Source of the DNA: an uncultured delta proteobacterium | Lineage (GTDB): Bacteria; Myxococcota_A; UBA9160; SMWR01 | DNA: 64,000 bases | Direction of reading: 5' to 3' | NCBI GenBank assembly: GCA_963832165.1 | Contig: CAWHTE010000007.1 | Coordinates: 704,001 to 768,000, forward strand | In this document: piece by piece, positions 128 to 55,469 of the stretch | Layout of the letters: every line of letters begins with the position of its first letter | Numbering within the stretch: the first letter of the stretch is position 1 | Program-made: the position numbers and the translations under genes | The notes under the pieces: generated by a model | What the model saw: only the letters and a program-made list of their open reading frames with translations | Told to the model about the DNA's origin: nothing | Database searches by the model: none

Positions 128-508
128 TCAGAGCATTCCGAGCTCGAGCTTCGCGGCTTCGGACATCATCCCGGGGTTCCAGGGGGGATCCCACACCAGG
201 TCGAGCACCACCGACGATACGCCCTCGACGCTGCGCGCTTTCGACTCCACCTCGGGCGGCAGCTCCTCGGCGGCTGGACACATCGGCGAGGTGAGCGTCA
301 TCTGGATCTGGACCGCGCCGCTGTCGTCGAGCTTCACCTTGTAGATCAGGCCGAGCTCGTAGATGTCGACGGGGATCTCGGGATCGAACACGGTCTTGAG
401 CTGCTGCACGATGCGGTCGCCCACCGCGCGCATGGCTGCGGGCGCCTCGACGATCGCGTCGAAGTCCGGGCTCTGGGTCTCTTTCTGCGGGGTCGTTTCG
501 TCACTCAT
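128..508 (-). CDS. sufT: SUF system Fe-S assembly protein SufT (DUF59/PaaD-like)
   Basis: C-terminal part of ORF 128..1021 from the ATG at 508. Contains LKTVFDPEIPVDIYELGLIY, MTLTSPMCP and VWDPPWNPGMMSEAAKLELG. Last gene of the suf operon. Confidence 0.9.
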   Translation of the reverse strand: MSDETTPQKETQSPDFDAIVEAPAAMRAVGDRIVQQLKTVFDPEIPVDIYELGLIYKVKLDDSGAVQIQMTLTSPMCPAAEELPPEVESKARSVEGVSSVVLDLVWDPPWNPGMMSEAAKLELGML

Positions 509-513
509 TGCGA

Positions 514-2187
<1,674 letters not shown>

Positions 2188-2191
<4 letters not shown>

Positions 2192-3516
2192 GCTGCCTCC
2201 TCACGGGCGCGGCGCAGACACGCGACTACCGCATCGTCCAGCCCCTCGGCAAGCGCGCGCGCGGGCAGGCGCTCGAGCACCTCGAGCGCGAACCCGCGCA
2301 GCAGGAGGTCGCGCGCGCGCTGTTCGGGGATTCCGCGCGAGCGCAGGTAGAACAGCGCGTTCTCGTCGAGCCGCCCGATCGTCGAGCCGTGGCTGCATTT
2401 CACGTCGTCGGCGTAGATTTCGAGCTGGGGCTTGGTGTCGATCTCGGCGCGCGCGCCCAGGAGCAGGTTCGGGTTCGACTGCGAGGCGGAGGTCTTCTGC
2501 GCGTCGGGTCGCACGATCACGCGGCCGCGGAACACGCCGCGCGCCGCGCCGCCGAGCGCGCCCTTGTAGAGCTCCCGGCTCGTGCCGTGCGGTACCGCGT
2601 GATCCACTTCGGTGTGGTTGTCGAGCACGCTGTTGCCGCCGCCGACGAACAGACCGTCGAGAGTGCACTGCGCGCCCTCGCCCGCGAGGAGCACACCCGC
2701 GTCGTTGCGCACGAGCCGGCCGCCCAGCGTGATCGTGTGCGCGCTGAAAGTACTGTCGCGTTCCTGGCGCACCGAGAGGTTCGAGACGTGGAAGTGCGCA
2801 TCGCCCTCGCGCTGCAGCAGCACCCAGTGGACGGTCGCGTTCGCTCCCACGTGGATCTCGGTCACTGCATTGGTGAAGCCGGGACCCTCGCCCACGCTCA
2901 CGTGATCCTGGACGATCGTCACGCGGCTGCCCGCCTCCGCCACGACCACGACGCGCGGATGGGCCATGTGCGGCTGCGCGCCGCCGACGCTCGCAAACAC
3001 CAGATGCAGCGGCTGTTCGAAGGCGACGCCGCGCGGCGCGCGCACGACCGCGCCGTCGCTCGCGAACGCCGAGTTGAGCGCGGCGAACGGGTGCAGCTTG
3101 ATGTCGACGTAGTGATCGAGACGCGCCTCGATCGGGCTCGTGCCGTCCGCGAGCAGCGCGGCCAGGCTGTCGCAGCGCGCTCCGCCGGGCAGGCCCGGTG
3201 CCGAGGACAGCGCGGGCAACGCGCGGCCGTTCGAGAACGCGTACAGGCTGCACGCGAACAGCGGCGTCGCGAGCTCCTCGAGATCGGCGCGCTCGATGCG
3301 CGCGGGCTCTGCGAGCGAGAACGGCAGCGCTGCGAGCGGAGCGAGGCTCGTGTAGCGCCACTCTTCCTCGCGCGTGCTCGGTAGCCCGCGCTCTGCGAAC
3401 GCAGCGATCGCGTCGCGTCGGTGCGCCGCGAGCCAGGCCGGCTCTCCGCGGCGCGTTTCCGCGAACGCGCGGTGCTCGGCCACGAAGCGGTCGCGCGCGG
3501 TCTCGAGCGCGCTCAT
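2188..3516 (-). CDS. sufD: Fe-S cluster assembly protein SufD
   Basis: EEWRYT, AQKT, TKPQLEIYADDVKCSHGSTIG and LFYLRSRGI; position in the operon. Confidence 0.95.
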
Positions 3517-4273
3517 CGCGCCGTTCCCTCGACCCAGCCGTAGCCCTTGTCCTCGAGCTCGAGCGCGAGCTCCTTGCCCCCGCTCTTCACGATCCGACCG
3601 CCCGCCAACACGTGCACCGCGTCGGGCACGATGTAGTCGAGCAGGCGCTGGTAGTGCGTGATCACGAGCATCGACCGCTCGGGATGGCGCAGCGCGTTGA
3701 CGCCGTCCGCGACGACCCTCAGCGCGTCGATGTCGAGCCCCGAGTCGGTCTCGTCGAGCACCGCGAACTTCGGCTCCAGGATCGCCATCTGGAGGATCTC
3801 ATTGCGCTTCTTCTCGCCGCCCGAGAACCCTTCGTTGACCGAGCGCTGCATGAGCTTCTCGTCCATCTCGACGAGCTTCATCTTCTCGCGTGCGAGCGCG
3901 AGGAAGTCGATCGCGTCGAGCTCCGGCTCTCCGCGGTGGCTGCGCACCGCGTTGAGCGCGGCCTTGAGGAAGTACATGTTCGCGACGCCCGGAATCTCGA
4001 CGGGGTACTGGAAGGCCAGGAAGATTCCCTCGCGCGCGCGCTCCTCGGCCGACAGCGCGAGCAGGTCGCGGCCCTCGTAGCGCACCGATCCGCGCGTGAC
4101 CTCCACCGAGGGACGACCCGCGAGCACGTTGGCGAGCGTGCTCTTGCCCGATCCGTTCGGGCCCATGATCGCGTGCACCTGGCCGGGCGGAATGACGAGG
4201 TCCACTCCCTTGAGGATCTCGGCACCGCCGGCAGTCGCGTGCACGTCCGAAAGCTCGAGCATCGGCGTCCCCA

Positions 4274-4274
<1 letters not shown>
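3513..4274 (-). CDS. sufC: Fe-S cluster assembly ATPase SufC
   Basis: Starts MGTPMLELSDV. Walker A GPNGSGKST, FLAFQYPVEIPGV, signature FSGGEKKRNE, LDETDSGLDIDAL, ITHYQRLL. Confidence 0.96.
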
Positions 4275-5734
<1,460 letters not shown>

Positions 5735-5747
5735 GGGGGTTCCTTGG

Positions 5748-6224
5748 TTAGGTCAGCGGTCGCGTGTCGAGGCCGGTCGTATCCACGCCGAGGCTCGCGA
5801 GCGGGACGAGCGAGCCGGGTGCGTCGAGCGCGGCGAGATCGGCCAGGCGGATCCGCGAGAGCGCGTCGTGCACCGCCCGATTGATCCGCTGCCATGGCGT
5901 GCGCACGTGGCAGCGCGGCTCCTGTGAGCACGCGCCCTCGTGCAGGTTGCAGTCAGTGAGCGCGATCGGGCCCTCGAGCGCCGCGATCATGTCGGGCACC
6001 GTGATGCTCTCGGCGGGGCGCGCGAGCCGATAGCCGCCCTTCGCGCCGCGCGCCGACGCGAGCAGACCTTCGCGCGCGAGCGCCTTGAGCAGCTTGCTCA
6101 CCGCGGGTAGCGGGAGCTGGGTCTCGGCGGCGATGTCGCGCGCTGCGTGCGGGCCCTCCCCGGCGCTCGCGAGGTGCGCCATCAGCACGATGCCGTAGTC
6201 GGTGAGTCTGCCCAGGCGGATCAT
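5748..6224 (-). CDS. Rrf2-family SUF system transcriptional regulator
   Basis: [28 protein letters not shown] and [10 protein letters not shown]6-C-x5-C (three Fe-S Cys). First gene of the suf operon. Confidence 0.9.
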
Positions 6225-6257
6225 GGCTGTGCTCCGTACGTCCTCTTGCACGATAAG

Positions 6258-6351: not shown

Positions 6352-7593
6352 TCAGCCGCCGGATGCGATCAGCGACCCCAGCGCGGGAAGGCCATCGCGC
6401 GGCCAGTCGAGCGGGGGGCTCTGGAGCTCTCCCGGGCTGCAGACCCGCGAGGCGCCCAGCGCGCGGAGCCCGGCTTCGACCCCGGGCTGGGCGCGGCCGA
6501 AACCCGCAACCGCGACGCCGGCGAGGTGCGCCGCGAGCGGCCCGAGCGCGTGGCCGAGCTGCTCGGGTGCAGGGAGCGGGTGCACGCGGACGAAGCGGTG
6601 CAGCGGAGCCGGACGCAGCGCCGCTTCGGACTCGCAGACGACCGCCCAGCTCGCGTCGCGCGCAGCGTGCACGGTCACCTGCGAGCCCGCGGCCGCGCGC
6701 AGCTCGGCGCCCGCGAGCTCGTGGGCGAACAGCGCGGCCGCACCCGCGTCGACCGCGCCGCGCGGCAGCGCGCGACCGACTGCGTCGAGCTCGCGCGCGA
6801 GCGCGTCTGCGACGCGCCGACACGAGCTGGTGTCGCCTGCGACGTAGACCGCGATCGGCGATAGACAGCCCAGCTGATCCCAGAGCGCCGTGTCGAGCGC
6901 GATGCCGCGCGCGGCGGCGTCGAGTGCGCCGCCGTCGCAGGACTCCGGGCCGAGCAGCGCGAGCGAGAGCCGGTGCCCGTGGCGCAGCAGCGCCTGGTGC
7001 GGGCGCATCCGCTCAGCGACCGCAGCGATCGTCGCGTCGGAGCCCGTCGCGAGTACGCAGCTCGCGCCCAGGAAGGCCTCCATGCACGCCGCATCCGTAC
7101 CCGCGAATCCGACCACCTCCACGCAGCGGCCAAGCTCGGGATCGATCGCCGCGATCGAGCGCGCGACGAGCGGCGCGGTGATCCGGTCCCGCGCGGCGGT
7201 CTTCACGAGCACGGGTGAGCGCAGCGCGAGCGGCGCGATCACTGAGAGCAGCGCCGGCATCGGAATCGAGCCCGCGAGCAGCACCGAGGTCACGTCGTAC
7301 CCGCGCGCGAGCTCTCCACTGCGCGCGAGCTCGCGCTCGGCGAGCGCGCGCAGCGCGTCGCCGGTCCAGGGTGCGAGCCCACGCGCGAGCCCCTCGAGCA
7401 CGTTCTGCGGCGAGAAGCCGGTCGCTGCGGGCAGCTCGCGTTCGAGCGCGCTCCGCTCGGGCCCTTCGCGATCGCGCCAGCGCTCGAGCACGGCGGCGAG
7501 CGCGTCGATCACTGCGCGCGCGGGCCGCCGCCGCAGCTCTTCGCCAGCCGCGCGCAGCGCCGCGAGGCGCGCGCGCAGCGCGTCGGGTGTCAC
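6352..7593 (-). CDS. LuxC-like acyl-protein/acyl-CoA reductase
   Basis: From the GTG at 7593, which overlaps the upstream stop (GTGA). ALDH-fold LuxC motifs LAGSIP, PVLVKTA, ATGSDATI, HGHRLS and DTALWDQLGCLSP (catalytic Cys). Confidence 0.85.
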   Translation of the reverse strand: MTPDALRARLAALRAAGEELRRRPARAVIDALAAVLERWRDREGPERSALERELPAATGFSPQNVLEGLARGLAPWTGDALRALAERELARSGELARGYDVTSVLLAGSIPMPALLSVIAPLALRSPVLVKTAARDRITAPLVARSIAAIDPELGRCVEVVGFAGTDAACMEAFLGASCVLATGSDATIAAVAERMRPHQALLRHGHRLSLALLGPESCDGGALDAAARGIALDTALWDQLGCLSPIAVYVAGDTSSCRRVADALARELDAVGRALPRGAVDAGAAALFAHELAGAELRAAAGSQVTVHAARDASWAVVCESEAALRPAPLHRFVRVHPLPAPEQLGHALGPLAAHLAGVAVAGFGRAQPGVEAGLRALGASRVCSPGELQSPPLDWPRDGLPALGSLIASGG

Positions 7594-8711
7594 GGCCCCG
7601 CGTCCGCGAGCAGCGCGTCGGCGCCGATCGAGCAGCCGCGCTCCTCGGCGTCGGCGTCGCGGCCGATCACCTCGAAGCCGTCGCCGATCGCGCAGCCGAG
7701 ATCGGCCGTCTCGAGCGCACACACGCTGCCCGTGTTCGCGAGGTCGTGCACCGCGATGCGGCCGCGCGCGCCCGGTGCGACCTCCTCGCCGCTGATCGGA
7801 TCCAGGATCCGCACGCGCGTCCACGGCGGCGCGATTTTGCGGCGCGGCGCAGCCGGCTCGCGCAGCAGCGAGTCGTAGAACTGGCTGCCGAGCTCGGTCA
7901 TCCCGTATTGATTGACGATGCGCGCGGGCGGCACACCGAGGCGGTCCTCGATCCAGCCGTAGAGCTCGGCGCGCGGCAGGCTGCGCGAGCGCCCCTTGAA
8001 CCCGCCCGTCTCCATCACGCGCGCAGCGCGCGGCAACGCGAAGCGGATGGCGCGGCGCTCGAGCTCCTCGAGCAGGTGCACGAACGCGAACGCGGTGCCG
8101 CCGACGAACACGGCTCGATCCGCGCGCGACGCCGCTTCGAGCTCGCGCAGCGCGCGCGGCACGTCGAGCCCGCCGCTCTCGATCCAGTGGCTGCTCTCCG
8201 GGCTTCCGGCCTCCCGCATCGCGATGTCGAACATGTGCGAGAGCGAGGAGTCGCTCGCCTCGCGCGCGCTCGGCGCGAGAACGTGGAACGGAATCCGCTC
8301 GCGCGGCGCGAGGTCGGGCAGCAAGGCGCGCGCGAACGATGCGAACAGCGACGCCTCGTAGACCGCGAGCGTATCGAGCAGCAGCGCGCCGCGCTGCGCG
8401 TGCGCGGTAGTGCCGCTGGTGCGGAACACGAACGCGGCGCGCTCGCGTTCGAAGCTCGTGAGCGAGAGCTCCTTGAATGCGCCGGTCGGGACGGCGGGCA
8501 CGTCCTGCCAGCGGCGCACGACCGCGGGCGTGCGCCCGCGCGCTTCGCAGAAGCGGCGATAGGGTGCGCAGCGCTCGAACTGGAACGCGAACAGCGCGAG
8601 CGCGAGATCCTCGAAGCGCGCGTCGTCGCCGCGCCACGACGTCTCGCGGGTCCACGCGATCACGGCCGCATCGAGCTCTGCGCGCGCGGGGTCGGGTCCG
8701 GCGACGCTCAT
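7590..8711 (-). CDS. LuxE-like acyl-protein synthetase
   Basis: From the ATG at 8711. FAFQFERCAPYRRFC, FRTSGTT, GTAFAF, METGGFKGR, YGMTELGSQFY, DLANTGS and EERGCS (acylated Cys). Confidence 0.88.
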   Translation of the reverse strand: MSVAGPDPARAELDAAVIAWTRETSWRGDDARFEDLALALFAFQFERCAPYRRFCEARGRTPAVVRRWQDVPAVPTGAFKELSLTSFERERAAFVFRTSGTTAHAQRGALLLDTLAVYEASLFASFARALLPDLAPRERIPFHVLAPSAREASDSSLSHMFDIAMREAGSPESSHWIESGGLDVPRALRELEAASRADRAVFVGGTAFAFVHLLEELERRAIRFALPRAARVMETGGFKGRSRSLPRAELYGWIEDRLGVPPARIVNQYGMTELGSQFYDSLLREPAAPRRKIAPPWTRVRILDPISGEEVAPGARGRIAVHDLANTGSVCALETADLGCAIGDGFEVIGRDADAEERGCSIGADALLADAGP

Positions 8712-9981
8712 CGCAGCTCGTCCACGAGCGCGTCGAGCGCGAAATCGAGCGCTTCGCGGCCGATCGAGAGCGGCGGCGAGAGCGCGATCACGCGCGCGTC
8801 GTCGCCGGCCGGCAGCGCGATCACGCCGCGCGCGAGCAGGCCGCCGAGTGCGCTGCGCACCACTTCGGGCCCGCTGCACTCCACGCCCAGCAACAGCCCG
8901 CGGCCGCGCACCTCGGTAACCCTCGCGAGGTCGGCGGTGGCGCCGCGAAGCCGCGAGAGCACCTGCGCCCCGACCTCTGCAGCGCGCTCGACGAGCTTCT
9001 CCTCCTCCAGCACGGCGAGCGACGCGAGCGCAGCTGCGCACGCGGGCGGATGTCCGAGGAAGGTCTGGGTGTGGAGCGCTTCCCCGCGCGAGGGCGGCCA
9101 GGCATCCATCACCTCGGCGCGCCCGATGCACGCGGAGATCGGCATGCCCGAGGAGAGGCCCTTGCCCACGCACAGCAGGTCGGGCCGCACTCCCTCGTGT
9201 TCGCACGCGAACCACGCGCCCGTGCGCCCGAAGCCCGTGTAGACCTCGTCGGCGACGAGCAGCCATCCCTCGGCGTCGCACACGCGGCGCAGCTCCGCGA
9301 GAAAGCCCGCGGGCGGGACGCGCTCTCCCCCGCGGCCCTGGATCGGCTCGACGATCACCGCGCCGACGGCGCGTTCCACACGCGGCCGCCGCGCGGCGCA
9401 CGTCGGCGGCATCCCCAAAGTGCGCAAACGCGGTCGCGTGCGCGAGCCGTGCCGCGAACGGCGCGCGGAACTCGTCGCGGTGCGTTGCATCGAGCGCTCC
9501 GATCGCGAGCCCGTGATAGGCGCCCTCGAACGCGACGACTCCCGTGCGCCCGGTCGCGAGTGCCGCGGTCTTCAGCGCGATCTCGACCGCATCGCTGCCC
9601 GACGATCCGAGCACTGCGCGCGCGGGACCTCCGCCCGGAAAGCGCCGCGCGAGCGCCTCGAGCAACTCCACCTTGACCGGTGACGGATGGACGTCGCCCA
9701 TCGCGTGCATGAGCGTGGCCGCCTGCTCCGCCACGGCGCCCACCACGCGCGGATGCGCGTGGCCGACGTTCGCGACCCCGAACGCCGCGCCGAGGTCGAC
9801 ATAGCGGTTGCCGTCGACGTCCCAGACGTTCGCGCCGAACGCGCGCTGCCAGAAGATCGGCTCGGGGTCGAGGCAGGTGACGTTGCGCGACTCCACGAGC
9901 GCGAGGCGCCTCGCGAGCTCGCGCGAGCGCGGGCCGGGGACGCGCGTGTGAAGCGCGGGCAATATCGGTGTGGGGGGCCAC
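8708..9981 (-). CDS. Class III (GabT/ArgD-like) PLP aminotransferase; +1 insertion at ~9370, start uncertain
   Basis: N-terminal part: WDVDGNRYVD, GHAHP, SGSDAVEIALK, FEGAYHG. C-terminal part: EPIQGRGG, ADEVYTGFGRTG, DLLCVGKGL. Start is either TTG 9962 or GTG 9981 if the 6-base homopolymer carries one extra base. Confidence 0.85.
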
Positions 9982-10010: not shown

Positions 10011-10560
10011 GTGACGGCGAATCCCACACCGGCGGCCGAGCGCGCGCGGGCGGGCGAGCACACCGCCTACGTCGCGCTCGGATCCAATCTCGGCGAACGC
10101 GAACACCACCTCGCGGCCGCGCTCGCAGCGCTGCGCGCGCTGCGCGGGGTTCGCGACGTCGCGTCTTCGCGCATCTACGAGACCGATCCGGTCGGGCCGG
10201 GCGAACAGCGGCCCTATCTGAACGCGGTCGCGCGTCTGCACACGCACCTCGCACCGCGCGAGCTGCTCGAGCGGTTGCTCGCGATCGAGCGCAGTGAAGG
10301 TCGCGAGCGCGGCGCCGGTGCGCAACGCACCGCGCACGCTCGACCTCGACCTGCTGCTCTACGACGATTGCGAGCTCAGTGAGTCGGACCTCGTCGTTCC
10401 GCATCCGCGCATGACGCAGCGCCCGTTCGTACTCGAGCCGCTCTGCGAGCTCGCACCCGATCTCGTGATCCCGGGCCTGGGTGCGCGGGTCTCCGCGCTC
10501 GCCGAGGCGGTTCGCGACCCGGACGCGGTGCGCGTGCGCGAGACTCGAGTCGGGAGGTAG
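10011..10560 (+). CDS. folK: 6-hydroxymethyl-7,8-dihydropterin pyrophosphokinase FolK; +1 insertion at ~10316
   Basis: [17 protein letters not shown] and YLNAV in one frame; [11 protein letters not shown] and [15 protein letters not shown] in the next. Confidence 0.92.
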
Positions 10561-24681: not shown

Positions 24682-25687
24682 CTAGCGCCCCAGCTCGCGC
24701 GCGACCTCCGCCCACGGCTCGGGATCGCGCGACCAGTGCGCGAGCAGGCTCACGCGATCCGCGAGATCGCCGCAGCGCTCGCGCACGCGCGCGGCCACGC
24801 GATCCATCGGCGCGCAGATCGCCACCGCTTCGAGCAGCTCGTCGCTGATCAGGCCCGTCATCTCGGCCCACTGGCCGCGCTTCGAGAGCGCGTTCAGCTC
24901 GGGCTGGAGATCGCCCAGGCCGTGGGCATCGAGCACGACGCGATAGGCGGGCGTCGAGGCGTAGAACGCGATCTGACCCTTGGTGAGGTTGCGGGTGCGC
25001 TCGGTCTCTTCGTCGTTCGCGCCGCTCGCCACCATGATCTGGAACGAGAGCTTCACGTCCTTGCGCGCGCGACCCGCGGCGGCGATGCCGCGCTCGATCG
25101 CGGGTAGCGTCACCTCGGCCACCGACTTCGCGGTGTTGAACGGGTGCACGAAGAAGCCGTCGGCGACCTCGCCCGCCACCTCGGTCATGCGCGGTCCGAC
25201 GCCCGCGATGAAGATCGGCGGGTTTCCGTACGGGTTCGCGCCCGGGTTGAACGCCGGGATCATCAGCGTGTGCTGATAGAACTCGCCGCGGAAATCGAGC
25301 CGGCCGCCCTCGGCCCAGCAGCGCCAGATCTCGCGGATCGCGAGCACCATCTCGCGCATGCGCGCGGCCGGGGCGCGACCACGGCATCGAGAAGCGCTTC
25401 TCGATGTGCGGGCGGATCTGCGTGCCGAGCCCGAGCAGGAAGCGGCCCTTCGAAAGCGCCTGCAGATCCCAGCCGATGTTCGCGAGCAGCATCGGGTTGC
25501 GCGCGAACGCGATCGCGATCGCGGTGTAGAGCTCGATGCGCTCGGTAGTCTGGGAGGCGAGCACGAGCGGGAAGAAGGGATCGTGCGGGCCTTCGAAGGT
25601 GAAGCCGCCGTCGTAGCCGAGCTGCTCGAGGCGACGCGCGGCCTCGCCGGGCGCGCTCGCATCCATGATCGCGGCATCGACCTTCAT
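24682..25687 (-). CDS. LLM-class oxidoreductase, probably F420-dependent (TIGR03617-like); +1 insertion at ~25370
   Basis: EGPHDPF, AIAFARNP, LGLGTQIRPHIEKRFSMPWSRP | AARMRE, FYQHTLM, ADGFFVHPF and IAFYASTPAY. Confidence 0.85.
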
Positions 25688-25740
25688 GATTCCTCCGAGT
25701 TGGAACACTATAGACTTCCCGGATCGAACAAGGAGAAGCC

Positions 25741-31265: not shown

Positions 31266-31931
31266 ATTTCGGATTCGGATCGGGTCCCCGAGCTGCGCTG
31301 GGTGCGTCCGCCCCAGCAGGCGCGCAGCCAACAGACGCTCGATCGCCTGCTCGACGCCGCCGAAGCGCTCGTGTCGGAGAAGGGCTTCGACGACGCGCCG
31401 GTCGCCGAGATCGCGCGGCGCGCCGGATCCTCGGTGGGCGCGTTCTACAGCCGGTTCCCCGACAAGGACTCGCTGCTCGGCGCACTCAACGAGCGCTTTC
31501 TCGTGCAGGCGGTCGCCACCGCCGATGCCGCGCTCGATCCGGCGCTCTGGCAGCGCGCGAGCATCGGGGAGATCAGCACTGCGTTCGTGCGCTTCCTGGT
31601 CGAGATCCACCGCGAGCAGCGCGGACTCCTGCGCGCCTTCTCGCTGCGCATGCGCGTCGACCCCGTGTTCCAGGCGCGGCGCGAGCGGCTCGCGCATCAC
31701 GTCGGCGGGAGACTCTCGGAGCTCCTGCTCGCGCACCGCGCCGAGATCCAGCACGCCGACCCGCACCGCGCCGCGGCGTTCGCGCTCACGATGGTGTTCG
31801 GCGTGCTCGAGCACACGATCGTGTTTGGCGAGATGCGCTCCGGCGCCTTCACCTGGACCGACGAGGATCTGTCCGCCGAGCTCTCTCGCGCGTTCCTCGC
31901 CTATCTGGTCGTCCCGACGCGCCCTGCCTAG
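31257..31931 (+). CDS. TetR/AcrR family regulator
   Basis: QQARSQQTLDRLLDAA..VAEIARRAGSSVGAFYSRFPDKD. Confidence 0.93.
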   Translation: MVLISDSDRVPELRWVRPPQQARSQQTLDRLLDAAEALVSEKGFDDAPVAEIARRAGSSVGAFYSRFPDKDSLLGALNERFLVQAVATADAALDPALWQRASIGEISTAFVRFLVEIHREQRGLLRAFSLRMRVDPVFQARRERLAHHVGGRLSELLLAHRAEIQHADPHRAAAFALTMVFGVLEHTIVFGEMRSGAFTWTDEDLSAELSRAFLAYLVVPTRPA

Positions 31932-31940
31932 GAGAACCCG

Positions 31941-32996
31941 ATGCAAGCGATGACCCAGTTCCATCCGAGCGACCGCCGCGCCGTCGAGCGCATCGACGTT
32001 CCGCAGAGCCTCACCTACAACTGGGAGTACGCGAGCCCGCGCCAGCGCCTCGAGCGCTTGTACGAGAATGCCAAGCGCGACCAGTGGAACGCGACCGACC
32101 GGCTCGACTGGTCGATCGACGTCGATCCGGAGAAGGGCCTCCTGCCCGACGCCGGGATCGGGATCTACGGCACCGAGATCTGGGCGTCGCTCGACGCGAA
32201 GCAGATCGAGCGGCTTCGCCACGAGGCGATCAGCTGGCAGCTCTGCCAGTTCCTGCACGGGGAGCAGGGCGCGCTGCTGGCGACGGCGCAGATCGTCGAC
32301 GCGGTGCCGTGGTACGAGGCGAAGATGTACGGCGCGACGCAGGTGATGGACGAGGCGCGCCACGTCGAGGTGTATCGGCGCTTCATCCAGCAGAAGCTCG
32401 GTGTCGAGTACGACGTCAACCCCGAGCTCAAGAAGCTGCTCGACCAGATCCTGCTCGACTCGCGCTGGGACATGAAGTTTCTCGGCATGCAGATCATCGT
32501 CGAAGGCCTCGCGCTGGCCGCGTTCGGCACGATCCGCGATACCGCGACCAACCCGCTGCTGCGCGACCTGACCGCGGCGGTGATGGAGGACGAGTCGCGT
32601 CACGTCGCGTTCGGCGTCCTGTCGCTGCGCGAGTACTGTCGCGATCTCTCGGAGCGCGATCTCAACGAACGCGAGGAGTTCGTCTACGAGGCGTGTGTGC
32701 TGATGCGCGACCGCATCAAGAGCCGCGAGGTGTGGGAGCGGATGGGGCTCGACGCCGACGAGTGCATCGCGCACGCCGAGCGCTCCGGCCTCGCCGCCCA
32801 GTTCCGCCACCGCCTGTTCTCGAAGATCGTCCCGAACGTGAAGAGTCTCGGACTGCTCTCGAGCCGACAGCGCGAGCGCTTCCACGCGCTCGACATCCTC
32901 CAGTACGAGCACGAGACGACCTCGGACGTCGATCACGACGCGGAGTTCGAGCGGCGCGTGCGCGCGGGCGAGGTCGAGCTGGCTCACGCGTCGTAG
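31941..32996 (+). CDS. Ferritin-like diiron protein (AurF-like oxygenase family)
   Basis: FLHGEQGAL, DEARH, VEGLAL and DESRH: two E..ExxH units of a diiron four-helix bundle. Confidence 0.82.
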   Translation: MQAMTQFHPSDRRAVERIDVPQSLTYNWEYASPRQRLERLYENAKRDQWNATDRLDWSIDVDPEKGLLPDAGIGIYGTEIWASLDAKQIERLRHEAISWQLCQFLHGEQGALLATAQIVDAVPWYEAKMYGATQVMDEARHVEVYRRFIQQKLGVEYDVNPELKKLLDQILLDSRWDMKFLGMQIIVEGLALAAFGTIRDTATNPLLRDLTAAVMEDESRHVAFGVLSLREYCRDLSERDLNEREEFVYEACVLMRDRIKSREVWERMGLDADECIAHAERSGLAAQFRHRLFSKIVPNVKSLGLLSSRQRERFHALDILQYEHETTSDVDHDAEFERRVRAGEVELAHAS

Positions 32997-33041
32997 CCCC
33001 GAGCGATCGGCGCGCGTATCATCGGGACGGGAGGAATCCCG

Positions 33042-34262
33042 ATGTCCGAGCGCCCCGGTGGGCTCGATCGGCGCGAGTTCCTGCGCCGCAGCGCAGTCAC
33101 TGGGGTCTCGCTCTCGGTCTTCCCGCTGATCGACGCGCGTGCGGCCGAGCCGCCGAGCGTGCGCCGCCGCGTGACGCTCGGACGCACCGGCCTGCGCATC
33201 GGTGACATCGGCTTCGGATCGAGCAGCCTCGACGGCGACGAGGCGCTCGTGCGCCACGCGCTCGATCGCGGCATCGACTACTTCGACACGGCCGAGGGCT
33301 ATACCAACGGAGCGTCGGAAGAGACACTCGGCCGCGCGCTGCGCGGCGTGCGCGAGAAGATCACGCTCGCGAGCAAGGTCGCCTGTGGCGCGCGCGACAG
33401 CGTGGCGGACCTGTTCCGCGCTCTCGAAGGCAGCCTGCGCCGGCTCCAGACCGACCGCATCGACCTCTACTTCAACCACGCGGTGAACGATGTCGAGCGG
33501 CTCAAGAACTCCGCGTGGGGCGAGTTCACCGATCGCGCGGTCGAGCAGGGGAAGATCCGATTCAAGGGCATGTCGGGGCATGGCGGGCGCCTCGCGGAGT
33601 GCCTCGACTACGCGTTCGATCACGACCTCGTCGACGCGGTGCTCGTCGCGCACAACTTCGGCCAGGACCCCGCGTTCCATCAGCGCCTCACCGCGTCGCT
33701 CGACTTCGTCGCCGTGCAGCCCGAGCTGCCCCGCCTGCTGGCGAAGGCGAAGGAGAAACGGGTCGGCGTGATCGCGATGAAGACGCTGCGCGGCGCGCGC
33801 CTGAACGACCTGCGCTCGTACGAGCGCGGCGGCAATACCTTCGCCCAGGCCGCGTTCCGCTGGGTGCTGTCGGGGCCCCACGTCGACGCGCTCGTGGTCA
33901 CGATGAGATCGCCCGATCAGGTCGACGAGTACCTCGGGGCCTCTGGCGCCACGGGCGTGAGTCGCGCCGACTTCGACCTGCTCGCTCGCTACGAGACCCG
34001 CAACGGCACCACGCAATGCCGCTACGGCTGTGGCGCCTGTCTCGCGGCGTGCCCGGAGGGCGTGTCGATCGACGAGGTGCTGCGCACGCGCATGTACGCC
34101 CACGATTACGGCGACGTCGGGCTCGCCAAGCGCGAATACTCGAGCCTGGCCGGCAACGCGCAGGCGTGTGTGTCGTGCGCTCACCAGGCGTGCACGGGCG
34201 CCTGTCCGTTCGGAATCGACATCGCGGGTCTCACCGCGCCGACGCATCAGCGGCTCGCATGA
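33042..34262 (+). CDS. Tat-exported aldo/keto reductase with C-terminal Fe-S (ferredoxin-like) motif
   Basis: LDRREFLRRS signal; YFDTAEGY, SLRRLQTDRID and AMKTL; Cys clusters CRYGCGACLAACP and CVSCAHQACTGACP. Confidence 0.88.
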   Translation: MSERPGGLDRREFLRRSAVTGVSLSVFPLIDARAAEPPSVRRRVTLGRTGLRIGDIGFGSSSLDGDEALVRHALDRGIDYFDTAEGYTNGASEETLGRALRGVREKITLASKVACGARDSVADLFRALEGSLRRLQTDRIDLYFNHAVNDVERLKNSAWGEFTDRAVEQGKIRFKGMSGHGGRLAECLDYAFDHDLVDAVLVAHNFGQDPAFHQRLTASLDFVAVQPELPRLLAKAKEKRVGVIAMKTLRGARLNDLRSYERGGNTFAQAAFRWVLSGPHVDALVVTMRSPDQVDEYLGASGATGVSRADFDLLARYETRNGTTQCRYGCGACLAACPEGVSIDEVLRTRMYAHDYGDVGLAKREYSSLAGNAQACVSCAHQACTGACPFGIDIAGLTAPTHQRLA

Positions 34263-41841: not shown

Positions 41842-42810
41842 ATGCGTCTGTCGTGCGGAATCGTCCCGGGCCCGAACGCCCCCGAGATCGCCGCGTTCGC
41901 GGAAGAGCTCGGCTACCACCGCGCCTGGTTCTACGATTCGCCCGCGCTCTACGGCGATGTGTGGATCGCGATCGCGCGCGCGCTCGACCGCACCGAGCGG
42001 ATCGGGGTCGGCACCGCCGTGCTCGTGCCGAGCCTGCGCCACGTGATGACGACGGCGGCCGCGATCGGATCGATCGAAGCGCAGGCGCCCGGCCGGCTCG
42101 CCGTGGCGATCGGCAGCGGCTTTACGGGCCGCGCGATGTTCGGCAAGCCCGCGATCCCCCTGAAGTCGCTGCGCGAATACGTCGTGGCGCTGCGCGCATT
42201 GTTGCGCGGCGAGGAGGCCGTGGTCGACGGCGCAGTCTGCAAGTTGATGAGCCCGCACGGCGTGATCGCGAAGCGCCCGCTCGAGGTGCCGTTGATCATC
42301 GCGGTGGGCGGACCGCGCGCGCTCGCGAACGCGAGCGACATCGCCGACGGCATCATGTGCGCGGGCGTGATCACGCCGGGCGTGCGCGACGCCTATCTAC
42401 TCTCGTTCGGCACCGTGCTGCGCGAGGGCGAGAACTACGAATCCCCGCGCGTGCTCGACGCGATCGGTCCCGCGATCGCCGTGATCTATCACGGCAGCTA
42501 TCAGGCCGGCGGTGCCGTGGCCGTCGATCAGCTGCCGGGTGGCGCCGCCTGGCGCGCGGAGATCGAGCGCTTCCCCGAGTCGGTGCGCCATCTCTACGTG
42601 CACGAGGGCCACATCTACGAGCTCACCGAGCGCGACCGGCGCCACATCCACCCCGCGCTCGGCGCGACCACTTTCACGGGCACGCCCGCGCAGCTGCGCG
42701 AGCGCGCCGCGGCGTACGAGGCGCAGGGGATCGCGGAAATCGTGTACGCGCCGATGGGCCCCGACGTGCCGGGCGAGCTGCGCGCGATGCGCGAGGCCCT
42801 GTCGGACTGA
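41842..42810 (+). CDS. LLM-class flavin/F420-dependent oxidoreductase (Mer-like)
   Basis: AEELGYHRAWFYDSPALYGD, IGVGTAVLVPSLRH, GRLAVAIGSGFTG and GPRAL..ADG. Confidence 0.85.
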   Translation: MRLSCGIVPGPNAPEIAAFAEELGYHRAWFYDSPALYGDVWIAIARALDRTERIGVGTAVLVPSLRHVMTTAAAIGSIEAQAPGRLAVAIGSGFTGRAMFGKPAIPLKSLREYVVALRALLRGEEAVVDGAVCKLMSPHGVIAKRPLEVPLIIAVGGPRALANASDIADGIMCAGVITPGVRDAYLLSFGTVLREGENYESPRVLDAIGPAIAVIYHGSYQAGGAVAVDQLPGGAAWRAEIERFPESVRHLYVHEGHIYELTERDRRHIHPALGATTFTGTPAQLRERAAAYEAQGIAEIVYAPMGPDVPGELRAMREALSD

Positions 42811-54295: not shown

Positions 54296-54322
54296 CCGCG
54301 TACAATCCGGTCGGAGGCCCCC

Positions 54323-55469
54323 ATGGCGAGCGATCTGTTCTCTACCCCCGAGCACGCGCTGTTCCGCGAGACGGTGCGCAAGTTCGTCGACGAGGAGCTG
54401 CGCCCGCGCGCGCGCGAGTTCGACGCGATGGGCCGCTTCGACAAGGGCCTGTACAAGAAGATGGGCGACCTCGGGATGCTCGGGCTCCGCTACGACCCGA
54501 AGTGGGGCGGGTCGGGGCTCGACTACTCGTACATGGCGATCCTGTTCGAGGAGATCGGCCGCTGCGACAACGCGGGCGTCGCGATGGGGATCAGCGTCCA
54601 CACCGACATGGCCACGCCCTCGCTGCACCAGTTCGGCAGCGACGAGCTGAAGCAGCAGTTCCTCGTGCCCGCGATCGCGGGCGAGATGGTGTCGGCGATC
54701 GCGGTCACCGAGCCGGGCGCGGGCTCCGACGTCGCCGCGATCCAGACGCGCGCCGTGCGCGACGGCGACGAGTGGGTGATCAACGGCAGCAAGATCTACA
54801 TCACCAACGCCGCGACGGCCGACTGGCTGTGCCTGCTCGCGGTGACCGATCCCGAAGGCCGGCTACGGCGGCTTCTCGCAGATCATCGTGCCCACCGACA
54901 CGCCGGGCTTCCGCTACGACCTGCTCGACAAGATCGGCAACTGGGGCTCGGACACCGGCCAGCTCTTCTTCGAGAACGTGCGCGTGCCGATCGCCTACAC
55001 GATCGGCGAGATCGGCCGCGGCTTCCAGCAGCAGATGATGCAGTTCCAGGACGAGCGCCTGGTCGGCTGCATCAGCAGCATCGCAGCCGCGCAGGACAAC
55101 TGGGAGAACACGCGCGCGTGGGCCGAGCAGCGCGTGCTGTTCGGCAAGCCGCTCTCGAAGATGCAGGTCACGCAGTTCAAGTTCGTCGAGATGCTCACGC
55201 AGCTCACCGCGGCGCGCGAGCTCACCTACGCGTGCATCCGCGAGTGCAACCGCGGCGTCGACGCGACGCAGCTGATCACGATGGCGAAGATCTTCTGCGC
55301 GCGCGTCGCGCGCTTCGTCGCCGACGAATGCATCCAGCTCTCGGGCGGCTACGGCTACATGAAGGAGAGCGCCGCGGGCCGCGCGTTCGTCGACAGCCGC
55401 CTGATCAGCATCGGCGGCGGCTCCGACGAGACGATGCTCCATTACCTCGCGAAGCAGCTCGGTTTCTAG
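54323..55469 (+). CDS. Acyl-CoA dehydrogenase, AtuD (citronellyl-CoA dehydrogenase)-like; +1 insertion at ~54857
   Basis: GLDYSY, TDMATP, TEPGAGSD and NGSKIYITN, then QFQDERL, GGYGYM and IGGGSDE. Confidence 0.88.

Follow-up and report, generated by a model that had tools for sequence, protein, structure and literature searches.

What does a bacterium make with an aminotransferase, a LuxE-like synthetase and a LuxC-like reductase that are encoded together? We examined this question for three overlapping genes in a 64,000-nucleotide stretch of DNA (hereafter the window; contig CAWHTE010000007.1, positions 704,001 to 768,000) from the assembly GCA_963832165.1 of an uncultured delta proteobacterium, which is labelled G000 here and is 89% complete. 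An initial annotation of the window had read the trio as a pathway from a carboxylate to an amine, with fatty acids or amino-diacids as substrates. The distribution of the trio points instead to the conversion of 7-carboxy-7-deazaguanine (CDG) to preQ1, and the trio is very probably an undescribed route for this conversion that is used in place of QueC and QueF. In the standard pathway (PMC13740343, PMC11130926), the carboxyl group of CDG becomes the aminomethyl group of preQ1 by the action of QueC and QueF. The trio fits the gap in queuosine synthesis because the missing step is exactly this change from carboxyl to aminomethyl.

The argument starts from what can be observed, namely the genes, their coupling, their catalytic residues and their distribution. 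The chemistry of LuxE and LuxC and the standard queuosine pathway are known from earlier work. We infer what the trio acts on, what it makes and how CDG is handled at each catalytic step, as follows. CDG would be made by FolE, QueD and QueE. The LuxE-like protein would adenylate CDG, hold it as a thioester on Cys360 and pass it to Cys243 of the LuxC-like protein, which would reduce the thioester with NAD(P)H to 7-formyl-7-deazaguanine. The aminotransferase would aminate this aldehyde to preQ1. Finally, Tgt, QueA and QueG would take preQ1 to queuosine, and the nitrile preQ0 would be bypassed.

Genes and predicted chemistry of the trio

All three genes are read from the minus strand. A class III pyridoxal phosphate (PLP) aminotransferase gene (AT; PF00202; 9981-8708) is followed by genes for a LuxE-like acyl-protein synthetase of 373 aa (PF04443, E 4e-15; 8711-7590) and a LuxC-like thioester reductase of 413 aa (PF05893, E 4e-45; 7593-6352). 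Stop and start codons overlap as ATGA between the AT and LuxE-like genes (8708..8711) and as GTGA between the LuxE-like and LuxC-like genes (7590..7593). The lysine of the CVGK motif in AT (codon 9161..9163) is expected to bind PLP, a role that we take from established knowledge of class III enzymes. Motif and alignment place the predicted thioester carrier of the LuxE-like protein at Cys360 in an RGCS loop (7632..7634) and the equivalent of LuxC Cys296 at Cys243 of the LuxC-like protein, in the motif DQLGCLSP (6865..6867). The initial annotation had described the coupled genes, both 4-nt overlaps and the RGCS and DQLGCLSP motifs, and all of them are in place. It had also described the window as free of luxAB and luxD. 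This stands insofar as no tandem luciferase pair and no LuxD match was found in a Pfam search of 46 coding-like frames and a few others, frames missed by the codon filter being unscanned; it needs amending for two lone luciferase-like monooxygenase genes (24691-25708 and 41860-42807), 15 and 32 kb from the trio. The trio is flanked by folK and a SUF operon, and named close homologues of its proteins come from Myxococcota metagenome-assembled genomes.

The scores place the trio outside the named families. The LuxE-like protein reached 54.7 bits against the NCBIfam LuxE equivalog cut-off of 550, the LuxC-like protein 64.9 bits against the LuxC cut-off of 750, and AT stayed below every NCBIfam equivalog cut-off, the AT of an intact relative scoring at most 314 bits. 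The trio proteins have no homology to TIGR00364 (QueC) or PF14489 (QueF) either, which makes it less probable that the trio is QueC and QueF, not that it works in their place.

We then considered the catalytic residues. LuxE adenylates an acid and binds the acyl group at Cys364, from where it passes to Cys296 of LuxC to be reduced with NADPH; K238 and R355 are needed (PMC9157457, PMC12041015). Residues K239, R351 and C360 of the LuxE-like protein align with K238, R355 and C364 of LuxE and are invariant in 32/32 alignment rows, as is C243 of the LuxC-like protein in 32/32 rows of a second alignment. The LuxE-like profile matches chain E of the LuxC-LuxE structure (7xc6_E, E 2.7e-39), while the LuxC-like profile covers residues 51-447 of 477 in 7xc6_A, which is also the best Foldseek match of the LuxC-like model (TM 0.79). 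Both predicted models, LuxE-like and LuxC-like, are confident (pLDDT 92.7 and 95.4). The predicted chemistry, from acid to aldehyde to amine, is well founded on sequence and model, because the catalytic residues are invariant, the models are confident and LuxC is the top fold match. The cascade that the initial annotation had proposed, in which a carboxylate is adenylated, relayed as a cysteine thioester, reduced to an aldehyde and converted to a primary amine, thus finds support in conserved catalytic residues. A fold match to aryl-acid ligases of the PaaK/AjiA1/NatL2 type was considered as evidence for an aromatic substrate and rejected; since LuxE itself resembles PaaK1, the match is uninformative on the substrate.

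The substrates of the initial annotation fared less well. A pathway from fatty acid through fatty aldehyde to long-chain alkylamines, for lipids or metabolites, would suit the fact that LuxE and LuxC are the sole close solved relatives of the trio, and tambjamine pathways make fatty amines by a reductase and a transaminase (10.1101/2025.08.11.669332). However, the LuxC-like protein (P0002) ends near residue 445 of the LuxC chain, 12 residues past a motif at chain Gly433, and lacks the C-terminal segment P460-P488 (paper numbering; chain 449-477) that completes the long hydrophobic cleft of LuxC. Loss of the segment could affect oligomerisation alone. Moreover, no LuxD or carrier protein is present among the conserved neighbours in 64 + 80 loci, and a fatty substrate gives no reason for the mutual exclusion with QueC and QueF described below. 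We therefore give the alkylamine explanation very little credence.

Reduction of an amino-diacid, either 2-aminoadipate towards lysine or glutamate towards ornithine, standing in for the chemistry of Lys2/LysW or ArgBC, is the least probable of the explanations considered. It could draw on a separate paralogue clade of six LuxE-like loci that stand behind homocitrate-synthase-like and aconitase-subunit genes, but these loci have no adjacent AT, and in one genome (G062) the clade is represented by a second copy beside an ordinary trio. G000 also possesses lysA and argC above curated cut-offs, together with a separate class III aminotransferase that has the usual FHGRT and EPVQGEGG motifs. In these enzymes, the Arg after YHG/FHG and the Glu of EPxxGEGG handle omega-amino-acid carboxylates, with the Arg binding the substrate carboxylate. 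Gamma-aminobutyrate transaminases and the ordinary class III enzyme of G000 keep both residues, and acetylornithine transaminases likewise have the Arg. The AT subfamily of the trio has a different signature (YHG[L/M], EPxxGRGG and DE[V/I][Y/F/W/L]TG). The position after YHG in 74 linked ATs holds Leu or Met in 69 sequences and Asp in 2, with 3 unmatched, so that Arg occurs in 0/71 matched sequences, and the Glu is replaced by Arg in 68/74. AT of the window shares both losses and, with its scores below the equivalog cut-offs, falls outside ArgD, LysJ and GabT.

The initial annotation had made its proposal depend on AT being kept beside luxE and luxC in other genomes, and a neighbourhood survey confirms that it is. 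The LuxE-like gene was found in 38/41 order-level genomes and in 169/201 genomes sampled from the phylum of G000 (the own phylum), mostly as a single copy. In the best 30 order-level loci, AT lies upstream in 30/30 and the LuxC-like gene downstream in 29/30, the one remaining contig ending there, so that the whole trio is seen in 29/30. AT stands beside the LuxE-like gene in 45/64 loci picked across the own-phylum sample, and a high-scoring AT is nearby in 29/80 named loci drawn from all GTDB genomes. Five of these 29 have the order LuxE-LuxC-AT (in Vulcanimicrobiota, Verrucomicrobiota and Acidobacteriota). One protein is an AT-LuxE-like fusion (P0236), and several LuxE-LuxC fusions exist too. 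In eight carriers without an adjacent AT, a signature AT is encoded elsewhere in seven and an intermediate form in one. Because AT is kept in other phyla even where the genes are arranged differently, and is fused to the LuxE-like protein in P0236, the view that the three genes form one coupled unit is supported. The LuxE-like subfamily is large, with 2,046 clusters at 50% identity matching at E ≤ 1e-30, paralogue clades included.

Some members of the family depart from this arrangement. Three loci with the order LuxE-LuxC-AT (L221, L222 and L225, two of them from Binataceae) have a different AT type without the signature and may represent another system. In P0219 and P0237, a Zn-dependent alcohol dehydrogenase is fused to the LuxE-like domain, suggesting an acid-to-alcohol variant. 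G000 itself has two more distant LuxE/LuxC-like pairs (C4:260915-264111, L054; and C11:726060-730344).

Distribution of the trio and of queuosine genes

We compared the occurrence of the trio with that of queuosine genes in three samples, comprising 201 genomes of the own phylum, 101 of Gemmatimonadota and 81 of Vulcanimicrobiota. In the own phylum, two weak LuxE matches (G177 and G213; E above 1e-10) were set aside from the carriers. QueC above the cut-off was found in 1/167 carriers versus 29/34 other genomes, and strong QueF in 0/167 versus 26/34. The one exception is G217, in which two queC genes are clustered with queE (Cx14CxxC-type), folE2 and a DndB-family gene (L143, G217:C41:80000-92000); a QueF search of this genome gave no match. 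The cluster is probably a 7-deazaguanine DNA-modification island. The same exclusion is seen in Gemmatimonadota, with QueC in none of the 11 strong carriers and in 73/88 non-carriers (0/10 and 72/87 when the carrier G325 and the QueC genome G285, both marked as unpublished, are removed), and in Vulcanimicrobiota, with QueC in none of the 32 strong carriers and in 17/34 non-carriers.

QueE, which acts upstream of the proposed step, was retained together with the trio. In Gemmatimonadota it is present in 11/11 carriers (two weakly), in 68/75 QueC genomes and in 1/15 genomes with neither; the corresponding figures for Vulcanimicrobiota are 32/32, 20/22 and 1/27. Over both phyla, 43/43 carriers have QueE versus 2/42 genomes in which both routes are missing. 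QueE thus occurs almost only alongside QueC or the LuxE-like gene, which is the pattern expected of an enzyme filling a pathway hole. A QueE-like gene was found in at least 140/167 carriers of the own phylum, a lower bound because the survey used one divergent query that also missed 14/30 QueC genomes. At the level of the order, all 34 genomes have a QueE-like gene, G000 included. QueA is present in 197/201 own-phylum genomes, so preQ1 is needed. In short, the trio is found where QueE and QueA are present and QueC and QueF were not detected.

Counter-evidence, sister clades and neighbouring genes

A number of observations weigh against a CDG-to-preQ1 route, beginning with kinship. For INDEPENDENCE, the genomes are kin and not independent, and all Vulcanimicrobiota carriers may belong to a single clade. 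We examined a QueA tree built from 60 own-phylum genomes out of 201, for which coordinates were listed and which were selected to cover families. Seven changes of the QueC state are required on this tree, at least two of which are forced by well-supported branches; 0/200 bootstrap trees allow a single change, although the bootstrap is not fully settled. In family f13, the LuxE-like gene is present in four of five genomes, and the fifth (G165, outside the QueA tree) has adjacent queC and queF instead. The changes on the tree, family f13 and the two other phyla together indicate several separate contrasts.

Some genomes blur the exclusion. A weak QueF-family match occurs in six carriers, all from one family; three of these proteins (L144, L145 and L146) were inspected, and they lack the Cys of the CPxTGQPD motif seen in G165. 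The family with these loci consists of trio carriers mostly without QueC. QueC is also found in 5/15 Vulcanimicrobiota and 2/2 Gemmatimonadota genomes that have weak, paralogue-level LuxE matches. Linkage of the trio to que genes is rare, being seen in 1/80 named loci and 1/64 own-phylum loci. The two cases themselves speak for the route, queE lying directly upstream of luxE-luxC (L193) or 4.3 kb from the trio (L111); in 2/6 further loci que genes lie 13-16 kb from the trio. Searches for a preQ1 riboswitch in the window and in 19 loci were negative, and an Rfam scan of the window found nothing.

The genome that carries the window gives evidence on both sides. In favour of the route, folE of G000 is directly preceded by two queD-like genes, queE-like, tgt and queG genes are also encoded, and a local search detected no QueC- or QueF-like frame. 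Its queD-like and queE-like genes score below the NCBIfam equivalog cut-offs, the QueE models still being the best matches. No queA was found in the 89% complete assembly. In the same genus, queA stands next to tgt in 5/5 genomes, and the whole queA-tgt block of these relatives has no counterpart in G000. Because the entire conserved block is missing along with queA and the genome is incomplete, an assembly gap is suggested. The sole tgt of G000 (C7:347984-349069, L140) belongs to a second type and shares 49-52% identity with the tgt that is linked to queA in the relatives. It keeps the equivalents of Asp156, Cys158, Val233 and Glu235, of which Cys158 and Val233 are preQ1-type residues (PMC3660597). 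The queA-linked tgt of the relatives (L151-L155) has GGLGLGE, with Leu at the Val233 position. G000 also encodes a YhhQ/QPTR-family queuosine-precursor transporter (C2:252863-253372, L261) that is present in 0/4 relatives checked; for this reason, the strain may be drifting to salvage or losing the route. The CDG-to-preQ1 claim rests on the family, not on the G000 copy.

That copy is moreover broken in the assembly, AT carrying two frame breaks. The break near 9377 corresponds to the frameshift at about 9370 that the initial annotation had named as a possible refutation, and the two halves of AT are in one frame in 29/29 relatives. The break near 9963 lies six codons past a conserved GTG start and is read through in 5/5 same-genus relatives compared. 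In comparison with a same-genus relative, sufS (two breaks) and folK (one break; 10011-10461) are likewise split, and further breaks interrupt the luciferase-like monooxygenase gene at 24691-25708 and an acyl-CoA dehydrogenase gene (54314-55466), which indicates a noisy assembly. Since these other genes are split as well, sequencing indels are the simplest reading of the AT breaks. In a check of reads, four runs gave only short, mixed soil contigs, which are uninformative on the breaks; none of the listed indels lay at either AT break, no listed run had half of the words of the stretch, and no RNA run was listed.

Several of these points could be turned into a different account, in which the trio makes another small aromatic amine or an unknown one, the exclusion of QueC and QueF reflects lineage history, and preQ1 comes from salvage or an unrelated enzyme. 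Kinship among the genomes, the transporter in G000 and the rare linkage to que genes would all agree with this, and a second role has reportedly been described for QueE in E. coli. However, the exclusion repeats in three phyla, with several changes within one, and neither salvage nor a second role of QueE predicts that QueE should be so rare (2/42) where both routes are missing. YhhQ is also found in 0/4 carriers checked. We regard another amine as an improbable product.

Another point against CDG as the substrate comes from the LuxE-like tree (FastTree, 144 rows, with a long-branch warning for L212/L223), which contains two side clades with support 99 each. One of them comprises nine loci from Bacillota and Pseudomonadota (L172, L173, L175, L177, L179, L182, L183, L189 and L192). 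Their neighbours are thiD, thiE, NMT1 transporters and, in place of AT, a short-chain dehydrogenase/reductase (SDR), and a thiamine pyrophosphate (TPP) riboswitch is present in 7/9. This thiamine clade is the nearest sister of the clade of the window (support 92). Its position in thiamine operons means that the family changes substrate, and it is a hint that close relatives handle small heteroaromatic acids. It could also mean that the trio itself takes part in thiamine-related salvage, turning an oxidised pyrimidine or thiazole acid through an aldehyde into an amine such as aminomethylpyrimidine; a Thiamine_BP gene lies about 580 bp from the AT start. Yet the loci of the sister clade encode an SDR but lack a signature AT (none was found in one thiamine-clade genome checked), searches of the window and nine other loci gave no TPP riboswitch, and the Thiamine_BP gene is part of a general order-level synteny. 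Thiamine salvage by the trio would also leave both the exclusion of QueC/QueF and the retention of QueE unexplained. We consider it highly unlikely, ranking it between another amine and the alkylamines.

For the thiamine clade itself the case is different. OarX, an SDR encoded in thiamine operons, was proposed for the salvage of oxidised thiamine acid and showed no such role in C. glutamicum (PMC11223231). We infer that the SDR of the thiamine clade is OarX. LuxE and LuxC of this clade are then candidates for oxidised thiamine acid salvage, as the missing partner of OarX. The second side clade (L091, L092, L104, L187, L203 and L206) has luxE-luxC behind genes for a homocitrate-synthase-like protein, the large and small subunits of aconitase and a flavin-dependent (FAD) oxidoreductase, with no AT.

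Returning to the CDG-to-preQ1 route, we think it likely that the following holds as a whole. The nitrile-free trio would be the main queuosine route of most bacteria of the Myxococcota group, of parts of Gemmatimonadota and Vulcanimicrobiota and of other phyla, and would have been swapped with QueC/QueF several times. The sister LuxE/LuxC pair would have been reused for thiamine-acid salvage with an OarX-like reductase, explaining why OarX alone gave no salvage.

Genes around the trio were considered as a functional clue and rejected. The recurrent order-level neighbours (folK, Thiamine_BP, cysH-like, SUF and B12 radical SAM genes) reflect general synteny, since the association vanishes outside the order. 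A gene for a B12-binding radical SAM protein (DUF4070) directly follows the LuxC-like gene in 6/21 order-level loci (for example, L034:11390-12949 and L039:5806-7377). In the window, the SUF operon just downstream of the trio (128-6251) encodes an Rrf2 regulator, sufB, sufC, sufD, sufS, and sufU-like and sufT-like genes. Elsewhere (31284-34166), genes for a TetR regulator, an AurF-like N-oxygenase and an aldo/keto reductase stand in a row.

Comparison with known systems

In PMC11130926 and PMC13740343, QueC and QueF are presented as steps that the de novo synthesis of queuosine requires. Among the papers listed by our literature search, which left most subscription papers and all supplements outside, none describes the trio or any route without QueC/QueF, and none contains both 'queuosine' and 'LuxE'. 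If the proposed route is true, surveys that score the pathway by QueC/QueF would call producers and suppliers of the precursor salvagers. A large LuxE/LuxC subfamily that has no name would also gain a function, and a heteroaromatic acid would be turned into a primary amine by a cascade of three enzymes without a carrier protein.

The LuxC-LuxE complex of Photobacterium phosphoreum (PDB 7XC6; PMC9157457) belongs to the same two families and provides the sole close PDB relatives of the trio. As its catalytic residues K238, R355, C364 and C296 are all kept, the same Cys-to-Cys acyl relay is expected in the trio. The trio proteins are, on the other hand, about 20-25% identical to LuxE and LuxC and far below the cut-offs for them. 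Compared with luxCDE, the trio has the domains and both catalytic cysteines, and it differs in its scores, in lacking luxAB/luxD and the C-terminal cleft segment of LuxC, and in being coupled to an aminotransferase. Neither luxAB nor luxD is among the conserved neighbours in the 64 + 80 loci.

Our model matches the fold of a phenazine biosynthesis protein (Z 20.8, about 13% identity), which we take to be EhpF, presumably of an EhpF/EhpG pair that reduces a heteroaromatic acid. Like the trio, EhpF/EhpG-type pairs combine an adenylating enzyme with a neighbouring gene of the aldehyde dehydrogenase family (PMC11278526, gene table). Unlike the trio, they lack an aminotransferase partner. Since LuxE also resembles PaaK-type ligases, this fold match does not indicate an aromatic substrate. 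The tambjamine pathways (TamA/TamH; TabQ/TabE/TabA) likewise lead from an acid or thioester through an aldehyde to an amine by a reductase and an omega-transaminase (10.1101/2025.08.11.669332). They belong to secondary metabolism and work with C12 chains and acyl carrier proteins, whereas the trio is free of carrier proteins and is a single-copy, near-core feature of many lineages.

The system that the trio would replace is QueC plus QueF. With the standard pathway as in PMC13740343 and PMC11130926, both systems would share CDG as the input, preQ1 as the output, and ATP and NAD(P)H as cofactors. The proteins are unrelated, and the trio would proceed through a thioester and an aldehyde instead of an amide and the nitrile preQ0. 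It would therefore yield no preQ0, and its nitrogen would come from an amino donor via PLP.

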